From sequence record PV845598.1: a DNA stretch of 44,255 bases; one strand, written 5' to 3'. The position numbers were made by a program, and so were the translations under genes. Positions 469 to 633 of this stretch are shown here, one piece after another (the stretch's first letter is position 1; each line of letters begins with the position of its first letter). The DNA is from Escherichia phage vB_EcoS_GZMU_E2010. The notes beneath the pieces are model-generated. The model saw nothing but the letters and a program-made list of their open reading frames with translations, ran no database searches and was not told the origin of the DNA.

Positions 469-480
469 GAGAATAGTTAC

Positions 481-584
481 GTTGCCGTTGTGATTCTTTC
501 GTTTCTTAAAAGAGTACGCAACGCAGTGGGTGGGCGTTAGCCCACCCCGCGGAGTGAAGTACTCTCTACCTTGCTTACGGCAAC
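481..584. other. nested inverted repeats (three-tier palindromic structure)
   Basis: Stems 481-488/577-584 (8 bp), 511-517/559-565 (7 bp), 528-535/540-547 (GGGTGGGC/GCCCACCC); followed by an AT-rich stretch. Confidence 0.6.
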
Positions 585-633
585 TATAGAAACTTTTAAT
601 TATCAGTGACTTGGGTATTTAGGTGGGGATTAA

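Follow-up and report, generated by a model that had tools for sequence, protein, structure and literature searches.

The window analysed here is the 44,255-nt sequence PV845598.1, the complete genome of a Kagunavirus (Guernseyvirinae) phage, and the element in question is a set of nested palindromes in the left part of an early intergenic region (IGR). The reading that we prefer, tentatively and with somewhat less than even confidence, is that a non-coding transcript running leftward ends in these palindromes, which would form its 3′ stem-loop and act as a weak terminator or insulator. Rather than a single element, the segment 478–633 is the left-hand portion of an early control region built from modules. 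An earlier note on this DNA had interpreted it as a candidate replication origin or other protein-bound structure or, alternatively, as part of a minus-strand transcript that starts in a nearby repeat and is structured here. The origin part of that interpretation found no support, whereas the alternative was the better fit to the comparative data.

The palindromes sit in a 460-bp IGR between the start of a leftward gene at 414 and the first rightward gene at 874. Three nested inverted repeats within 481–584, as described earlier, were all found in place. The outer repeat, read from the sequence, has 8-bp arms (GTTGCCGT, 481–488, and ACGGCAAC, 577–584), the middle one has 7-bp arms (AGAGTAC, 511–517, and GTACTCT, 559–565), and the inner one has 8-bp arms (GGGTGGGC, 528–535, and GCCCACCC, 540–547) separated by the loop GTTA. 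At no other locus in the 44-kb genome did three perfect inverted repeats of 7 bp or more lie nested within 110 nt, and such a triple appeared anywhere in 7% of block-shuffled genomes. The core (500–590) folded at -35.3 kcal/mol on the minus strand (z = -3.68, 0/200 shuffles as stable) and at -36.6 kcal/mol on the plus strand (z = -3.65, 2/200 shuffles as stable). The segment 499–576, referred to below as the type A cassette, forms on the minus strand a long interrupted hairpin composed of a lower stem (509–517/559–567), middle pairs and an apical GC stem (528–535/540–547) with its loop at 536–539. The minus-strand local fold of this hairpin (about 567–509) was -31.6 kcal/mol. When compared with the pattern of an intrinsic terminator, type A showed the GC-rich stem-loop (8-bp GC stem, 4-nt loop) and lacked a U-rich tract, the extended stem being followed by UUU(U)AAG (511/510–505) and the apical stem by ACUGCGUU.

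The comparison set comprised 46 related loci, all of which were typed: 5 came from GenBank records, 17 from IMG/VR contigs and 24 from metagenome contigs. Those from the last two sources had been retrieved using the invariant sequence itself. The IGR was complete in 45 of them and truncated in L031. After an invariant block, a slot of about 95 nt was occupied by one of three unrelated versions: A (the window), B or C. Common to all three was a GC-rich hairpin with a 7–9 bp stem and a 3–5 nt loop. It reads GGGTGGGC-GTTA-GCCCACCC in the cassette of this window, GGGCAGGYC...RCCTGCCC in cassette B, and GTGGTGCC-GAA-GGCACC, accompanied by a (GTGA)n microsatellite, in cassette C. In a consensus scan the B and C hairpins scored as intrinsic terminators on the minus strand only, with the calls GGGCAGGTtttagACCTGCCC then TTTAGTTACC and TGGTGCCttcGGCACCA then CGTTCGTTTC. 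Cassette B carried one compensatory pair change, from T-A to C-G, and one further change that stayed paired only on the minus strand, as G-U (L013 and L041). Substitutions in type A clustered in the linker 566–576 and in the apical loop, which read GTTA, GATA, GTCA or TTTA. Type A was 95–98% identical among phages whose flanking 3 kb stood at 85–91%, indicating that this cassette is under constraint. Beyond the cassettes, the DNA between the right arm region, which includes a candidate IHF site, and the rightward promoter was one of four unrelated modules, and every cassette-module combination occurred.

Some further variation was seen around the cassette slot. The (GTGA)n microsatellite of cassette C ranged from about 3 to 7 units between phages (L003 at about 1583–1610; L014, L016, L032, L045), and its copy number shifts the spacing of the control region in 4-nt steps. 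The contig of L029 (CYGL01001311.1, 6231–6256) ended at the junction of invariant block and cassette, 4 nt past the matched pattern, as would be expected if the phages in a mixed population differed in their cassettes and the assembly broke at that point. IGRs of the K1ind2 type (L002, 1632–1770) held a hairpin, GCCCCGCTTTATGGCGGGGC, oriented for a plus-strand T tail; the same sequence occurs at 31311–31335 of the window. This hairpin lies about 100 nt downstream of a 9/12 plus-strand promoter that overlaps an IHF-like site, and K1ind2-type phages may have a small rightward RNA gene there.

A minus-strand sigma-70-like promoter pointing at the cassette, 290–360 nt to the right of the anchor, was found in 45/45 complete loci and in four unrelated modules. 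This promoter at an equivalent position, together with B and C hairpins that score as minus-strand terminators, is in line with the idea of a structured minus-strand transcript. The promoters of the modules were TTGACA-16-TAAAAT (11/12) and TTGAAA-18-TATAAT (11/12), TTGACA-17-TAAG(G/T)T (9/12) and, in the window, TTGACT-17-TAAGCT (8/12), all on the minus strand. A match of 11/12 was reached in 0.3% of comparable genomic windows. The window's own candidate promoter, P_x (777–749), consists of TTGACT (777–772), a 17-nt spacer and TAAGCT (754–749). The strict pattern TTGAC./TTGAAA-16..18-TAnnnT occurred 9 times in the genome, and 2 of these occurrences were the two copies of the repeat described next.

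P_x lies in a 143-bp repeat whose existence was confirmed, 634–777 matching 31397–31539 at 89% identity, both on the minus strand. The copy at 31397–31539 is the universal one, located upstream (in the minus sense) of a hairpin at 31335–31311 with the tail TTTACTTAT, after which come the Rz-like spanin, scaffold and major head genes. The order there is promoter, conserved leader, hairpin with T tail, and genes, and the copy looks like an undescribed late-operon promoter with a structured leader. The early copy at 634–777 would then duplicate this promoter and leader and point towards the early-left operon. The 143-nt element was present in 180 Guernseyvirinae records at 85–94% identity, and in two copies in 42 of them. 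Across 16 copies both P_x hexamers were invariant and the 17-nt spacer was variable. Copies are separated by 1-nt indels, indicating that the element is non-coding; in agreement, the open reading frames (ORFs) in 619–786 were not conserved, since these indels break their frames. No ORF of at least 30 aa was found within 478–618. The element folded more stably on the minus strand in 16/16 variants, by 1–12 kcal/mol. On direct inspection, the stem of its central hairpin, always found at one position, had five different sequences; RNAalifold on MAFFT alignments did not recover this hairpin, the variable centre being misaligned.

We propose that the cassette would act as RNA, transcribed from the minus strand. 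A leftward sigma-70 promoter, placed back-to-back with the rightward early promoter and in the window represented by the duplicated late-operon promoter and leader of the 143-bp repeat, would initiate at about 742 a non-coding RNA of about 240 nt that crosses the AT-rich stretch and runs through 633–505. At the 3′ end of this RNA, just before the leftward early promoter P_L, the nested palindromes would fold into a long hairpin, which would stop or pause leftward transcription and stabilise the RNA 3′ end. The hairpin would also shield P_L and the early-left operon from transcription arriving from upstream, which may be late-timed. Such an insulating hairpin before P_L is plausible because the early repeat copy duplicates a late promoter and leader and points towards that operon. 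In B and C it would serve as a standard intrinsic terminator. In type A, where the U tract is short, termination is proposed by analogy and would probably be partial or factor-dependent. The invariant block and the IHF-type site would most likely act on P_L at the DNA level.

Several points weigh against the leftward transcript. The P_x and the hairpin tail of the window are the weakest of the family. The 8/12 match of P_x was reached in 42% of random 320-nt windows and is not significant by score, and the scan of the window did not score the type A hairpin, with its tail of 3–4 U, as a canonical terminator. In 4/22 type A loci the U tail is shortened further. The palindrome folds equally well on both strands, the cassette regions have a lower raw minimum free energy on the plus strand, and the substitution A511G (L010, L044) is tolerated only on the plus strand. 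The GGGTGGGC-N4-GCCCACCC hairpin is generic among unrelated viral contigs, usually with no T run. The complete conservation (100%) of 469–503 is not accounted for by a leftward transcript, and a search of the one Kagunavirus transcriptome paper returned no mention of intergenic, non-coding, antisense or promoter.

G-U wobble pairs and strand-energy asymmetry were considered as a strand test and rejected, since the signals from the cassette contradict one another and a preference for the minus strand was seen only in the 143-nt element. The scan of viral contigs for the apical hairpin, which returned more than 110 unrelated contigs, mostly without a T run, was uninformative on mobility or function.

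An explanation that we regard as unlikely, though it survives best among the alternatives, is that the region is protein-bound control DNA, in which the invariant block, the GTTGCCGT arms and the IHF-type site set P_L or both divergent early promoters. IHF would bend the DNA and bring upstream sequence, or a regulator bound to it, to P_L, and the hairpin potential of the cassette would be secondary. Evidence for this comes from P_L and its upstream flank. The minus-strand early promoter that the earlier note had placed at 440–468 was read in the sequence as TTGCAC (-35, 468–463), a 17-nt spacer and TACTAT (-10, 445–440). The sequence from 437 to about 503, comprising P_L and about 35 bp upstream including the left arm, was invariant across Escherichia and Salmonella phages (Kagunavirus and Jerseyvirus). 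The block itself, 469–503 (AGAGAATAGTTACGTTGCCGTTGTGATTCTT(TCGTT)), stands directly upstream of the -35 hexamer of P_L and holds the left arm and GAATAGT, a half-site of the operator-like palindrome that overlaps P_L. An unbiased BLAST search gave 96–100% identity for 470–498 in 141 phage records, including Salmonella Jerseyviruses; the block was also identical in 47 loci, a count that is partly circular as loci had been retrieved with it. Invariance of 35 bp upstream of the P_L -35 over two genera exceeds what the 3′ flank of an RNA would need, and we infer from the sequence that the block is an upstream element of P_L or a protein-binding site. Reading of the block sequence gave no convincing match to a CRP site, a plus-strand promoter or an attenuator switch. 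For the leftward RNA, an attenuator cannot be formed by the arms because the left arm is transcribed after the hairpin.

P_L overlaps the operator-like palindrome AATAGTATCCTATTAT (439–454), the motif family of which has 10 copies in the genome against 0.7 expected. For Kagunavirus fBC-Eco01, the consensus tgAATAGTa-ccTATTat has been given as a PHIRE-predicted 'phage promoter' (PMC9825357). The identical motif overlaps P_L at 439–454, but it falls outside the nested palindromes. This consensus is itself palindromic and was found in or beside sigma-70-type hexamers in either orientation. Two tandem copies (4068–4083 and 4112–4127) occur in 3822–4130, beside an XRE-like gene, and the copy at 4112–4127 lies in the spacer of a TTGACA-17-TATAGT promoter. 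The gene concerned, a minus-strand gene of 71 aa (3822–4037) followed by the most AT-rich stretch of the genome (4036–4100), is one that we take to be XRE/Cro-like from our own reading of its translation. Since the motif is palindromic, stands in either orientation at sigma-70 hexamers and has two copies beside the XRE-like gene, it looks more like an operator than like a promoter for a phage RNA polymerase, which suggests that what was published as a 'phage promoter' motif is in fact the operator of this XRE/Cro-like regulator. Kagunavirus-type phages are not known to encode an RNA polymerase.

The outer arms and the IHF-type site also speak for protein binding. The left arm (481–488, plus strand) is GTTGCCGT, and the right arm (577–584) is the same octamer on the minus strand. 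The right arm was kept as 6–8 nt (ACGGCA...) beside all three cassette types, in 41/46 typed loci. The octamer was over-represented 5- to 8-fold in the window genome and in a Jerseyvirus, with no such excess in lambda or in a segment of E. coli. With 18 unique copies it is the second commonest 8-mer of the genome; the expected number was 2.3 in dinucleotide shuffles, 3.7 under a third-order Markov model and 7.5 +/- 1.4 when synonymous codons were shuffled, the last being an imperfect null under which CGCCGCCG also appeared 'enriched'. The 18 sites are at 17, 481, 577, 1603, 3536, 5861, 10033, 10473, 14864, 17366, 17760, 21239, 26734, 30027, 30229, 30844, 41158 and 42598, and lie in several reading frames and on coding and template strands. 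Jerseyvirus SP101 (L049) had 16 copies versus 3.6 expected, 14/16 of them on one strand. There was no enrichment in lambda (2 copies) and a weak one in 50 kb of E. coli (6 versus 3.2). Single sites were shared between the window and SP101 only where the flanks were also at least 91% identical, and comparison of the two sequences suggests that sites turn over between genera with their abundance maintained. Either compositional bias or a DNA signal dispersed over the genome could account for the enrichment.

Next to the right arm, the segment 587–633, which had been described as AT-rich, was indeed 68% A+T, at the 98th percentile of 47-nt windows, though it is not the most AT-rich part of the genome; the maximum (81%) is at 4036–4100. 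It contains a predicted IHF site at 601–613 (TATCAGTGACTTG), preceded by the A/T tract AAACTTTTAAT (590–600), which by sequence matches the core consensus WATCARNNNNTTR with an upstream A/T tract. The core consensus occurred 7 times in the genome versus 2.4 expected. In most loci of each cassette type, ACGGCA was followed by ATCAGnnACTTR, of which the ATCAG motif is the IHF consensus; consensus and A/T tract stand beside all cassette types, and the consensus keeps the same position in 37/46 typed loci. The site is about 135 bp upstream of P_L, between the divergent early promoters.

On the other hand, both the distance between the arms and that between the IHF-type site and P_L vary with the cassette and with microsatellite copy number. 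The right arm is absent in five loci, all of type C, and the IHF consensus is absent in four Bas71-type loci. The variable spacing of the arms, which in type C includes 4-nt (GTGA)n steps, and the five loci without a right arm speak against a phased protein bridge that would connect them. Protein binding also leaves unexplained why a strong hairpin is present in every cassette. The leftward transcript, protein binding and a transcription-activated origin are not mutually exclusive.

The replication origin proposed in the earlier note is improbable, whether the hairpins and AT stretch are taken to be recognised directly or the origin is taken to be transcription-activated, with RNA from the leftward promoter opening or priming AT-rich DNA. 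Its appeal lies in the setting: the early genes diverge here, and the primase-helicase gene (1477–3804, plus strand, AAA_25 domain) begins about 850 bp downstream. Transcription-dependent origins would also be compatible with a promoter that has a 68% A+T stretch and an IHF-type site behind it. Against this, no iterons were found, the direct-repeat families in 1–2000 all having two copies and chance-level identity; no DnaA box (TTWTNCACA) was present in 415–875 on either strand; and the AT maximum of the genome lies elsewhere, at 4036–4100. That stretch is an alternative place to look for an origin. The cumulative GC skew does have an extreme at this orientation switch, as the origin proposal would have it, but the skew changes sign wherever gene orientation switches, and in each of the six blocks its sign is that of the coding strand. 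Transcription polarity thus explains the inflection, which carries no independent signal of replication.

The exchange of cassettes bears on the same question. The N-terminal ~150 aa of the primase-helicase (1477–1930) occur in two forms, about 30% identical, one of the window/K1G type and one of the Golestan/Bas71 type. Cassettes A, B and C reassort with both forms, including in relatives with 96–99% identical proteins. By helicase type, the counts were 17 for A with T1, 2 for A with T2, 7 for B with T1, 2 for B with T1b, 4 for B with T2, 7 for C with T2 and 2 for C with T1. Linkage between a presumed origin and its initiator was therefore not observed. Nor were the palindromes kept in every close relative, a check that the earlier note had named: in some relatives at 96–99% helicase N-terminus identity they are lost and replaced by B or C, though the hairpin architecture is kept. 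Literature searches and a full-text term search of the BASEL collection paper found no origin described for Guernseyvirinae. As to the helicase itself, a Salmonella N-terminal variant was 61% identical to that of the window, and the N-terminal forms reassort among otherwise close phages (L001–L005).

A broader version of the leftward transcript can also be put forward, to which we give a small chance. All Guernseyvirinae would have, in the space that separates the divergent early promoters, a leftward non-coding RNA gene made of exchangeable cassettes (promoter module, body, and hairpin bracketed by a GTTGCCGT pair) with a dedicated role, and GTTGCCGT would be a dispersed, selected signal read by a phage or host factor. 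For example, the RNA could prime a transcription-activated origin or form an R-loop for it or, sharing its body with the late leader, act as a regulator or decoy.

That the transcript runs the other way is very unlikely. A rightward RNA would start from the palindromic motif (-10 TATTAT, 449–454), with the block as its 5′ part and the cassette as its structured body. Plus-strand folds of the cassette regions are on average the more stable in all three types, but this edge in energy is gone once composition is controlled (z = -2.28 for plus versus -2.83 for minus). A hairpin between 486–499 of the block and 509–523 of type A forms only on the plus strand, using G-U, and A511G keeps its pairing only there; however, this block-cassette hairpin has no counterpart in type B. 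SP101 has a 9/12 plus-strand promoter, TCAACA-17-TATTAT, at the same position, but in the window the -35 is poor (TTTCGA or GTTTCG) and was not listed by the scan, and none of the cassette types has a plus-strand hairpin with a T run.

Least probable of all is that the region has no specific function and is a recombination scar or mosaic joint, with palindromes left as terminator remnants from horizontal exchange: the slot is a mosaic hot spot (three cassette types by four downstream module types), L029 ends at its junction and the apical hairpin sequence is generic in viral DNA, but type A (95–98%) is more conserved than the neighbouring coding DNA (85–91%), all three cassettes, though unrelated, keep a hairpin, in which type B has a compensatory change, and the triple-nested repeat is unique in the genome.

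Searches for known elements were negative. Rfam 15 gave no match at gathering score in the whole window, and ARAGORN found no tRNA or tmRNA. At E values up to 10, Rfam returned nothing above chance level in 400–900, and a permissive search likewise gave nothing meaningful in 31280–31560. The possibility that the cassette is a copy of a host repetitive extragenic palindrome (REP) or small RNA was rejected, as 499–612 had no homology in 5,426 E. coli genomes. The literature on origins, promoters and transcriptomes of Kagunavirus and Jerseyvirus yielded PHIRE and ARNold predictions and one gene-level RNA-seq study, and nothing on the palindrome IGR or on intergenic or strand-resolved transcripts.

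Other features of the genome were recorded. The first 3 kb matched about 230 Kagunavirus and Jerseyvirus (Guernseyvirinae) records at 85–91% identity. An exact 127-nt duplicate at the genome ends (1–127 and 44129–44255) most probably reflects overlapping ends of a genome that was assembled as a circle or is permuted, not a biological terminal repeat. In the segment 815–1459, a perfect 14-bp inverted repeat (822–835/845–858) overlaps the rightward promoter TTGCTT-17-GGTACT. The first rightward gene of the relatives (HTH or excisionase-like) is replaced in the window by two other ORFs: a 47-aa cysteine-rich ORF (874–1017), with weak PHROG matches to the N-termini of HNH or endonuclease VII proteins, and a 149-aa ORF (1010–1459) with no family. 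Inside the replication operon, a 164-aa ORF (4887–5381) has HNH_3 and AP2 domains of homing-endonuclease type and adjoins a DUF2800/PD-(D/E)XK nuclease gene (5378–6679). A family of GC-rich terminator hairpins, AAGGCCCC-N4-GGGGCCTT with T tails, was found at 12633–12667, 24523–24557 and 31907–31941; its three copies mark the ends of convergent transcription units, and the third is inverted relative to the first two.

The elements proposed here resemble known phage systems. In lambda, intrinsic terminators end short leader or non-coding RNAs, as in PR′-6S RNA-tR′ and oop RNA. The predicted arrangement here is the same in order: a constitutive-looking sigma-70 promoter is followed by a non-coding RNA of ~80–240 nt and a GC-rich stem-loop, after which another transcription unit begins. 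The promoter, leader, hairpin and late genes of the second 143-nt copy follow that order as well, and hairpins B and C fit the terminator pattern. The differences are that type A of the window is without a proper U tract, that the transcript here is predicted from sequence, and that the hairpin lies upstream of a second, independent promoter and not directly before genes. No Q-like antiterminator or antisense target was identified for the window locus. IHF assists early control at the Pe/Pc operator region of phage Mu and at the IHF sites upstream of lambda pL. Similarly, the window has an IHF consensus with an A/T tract between divergent early promoters, and operator-like palindromes overlap promoters; here, however, the IHF site is predicted and its distance from the promoter is not conserved among relatives. 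Transcription-activated origins are represented by the T7 primary origin, in which promoters are followed by an AT-rich segment, and by T4 oriF and oriG. The window shares with the T7 primary origin and T4 oriF a promoter followed by an AT-rich stretch, in a phage with its own primase-helicase and family A-type polymerase, but its AT stretch is modest (68%) and its cassette is exchanged irrespective of the type of replication protein.

Kagunaviruses and Jerseyviruses are common therapeutic and model phages. In these genomes, GC skew cannot locate the origin. The 'origin-like' palindrome is recast as part of a modular map consisting of an invariant block, three cassettes, an IHF-type site and a predicted leftward promoter. 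The palindrome region is an undescribed example of familiar kinds of element, and if the leftward RNA is real, the IGR would be a new non-coding RNA locus of phages, polymorphic in its cassettes.

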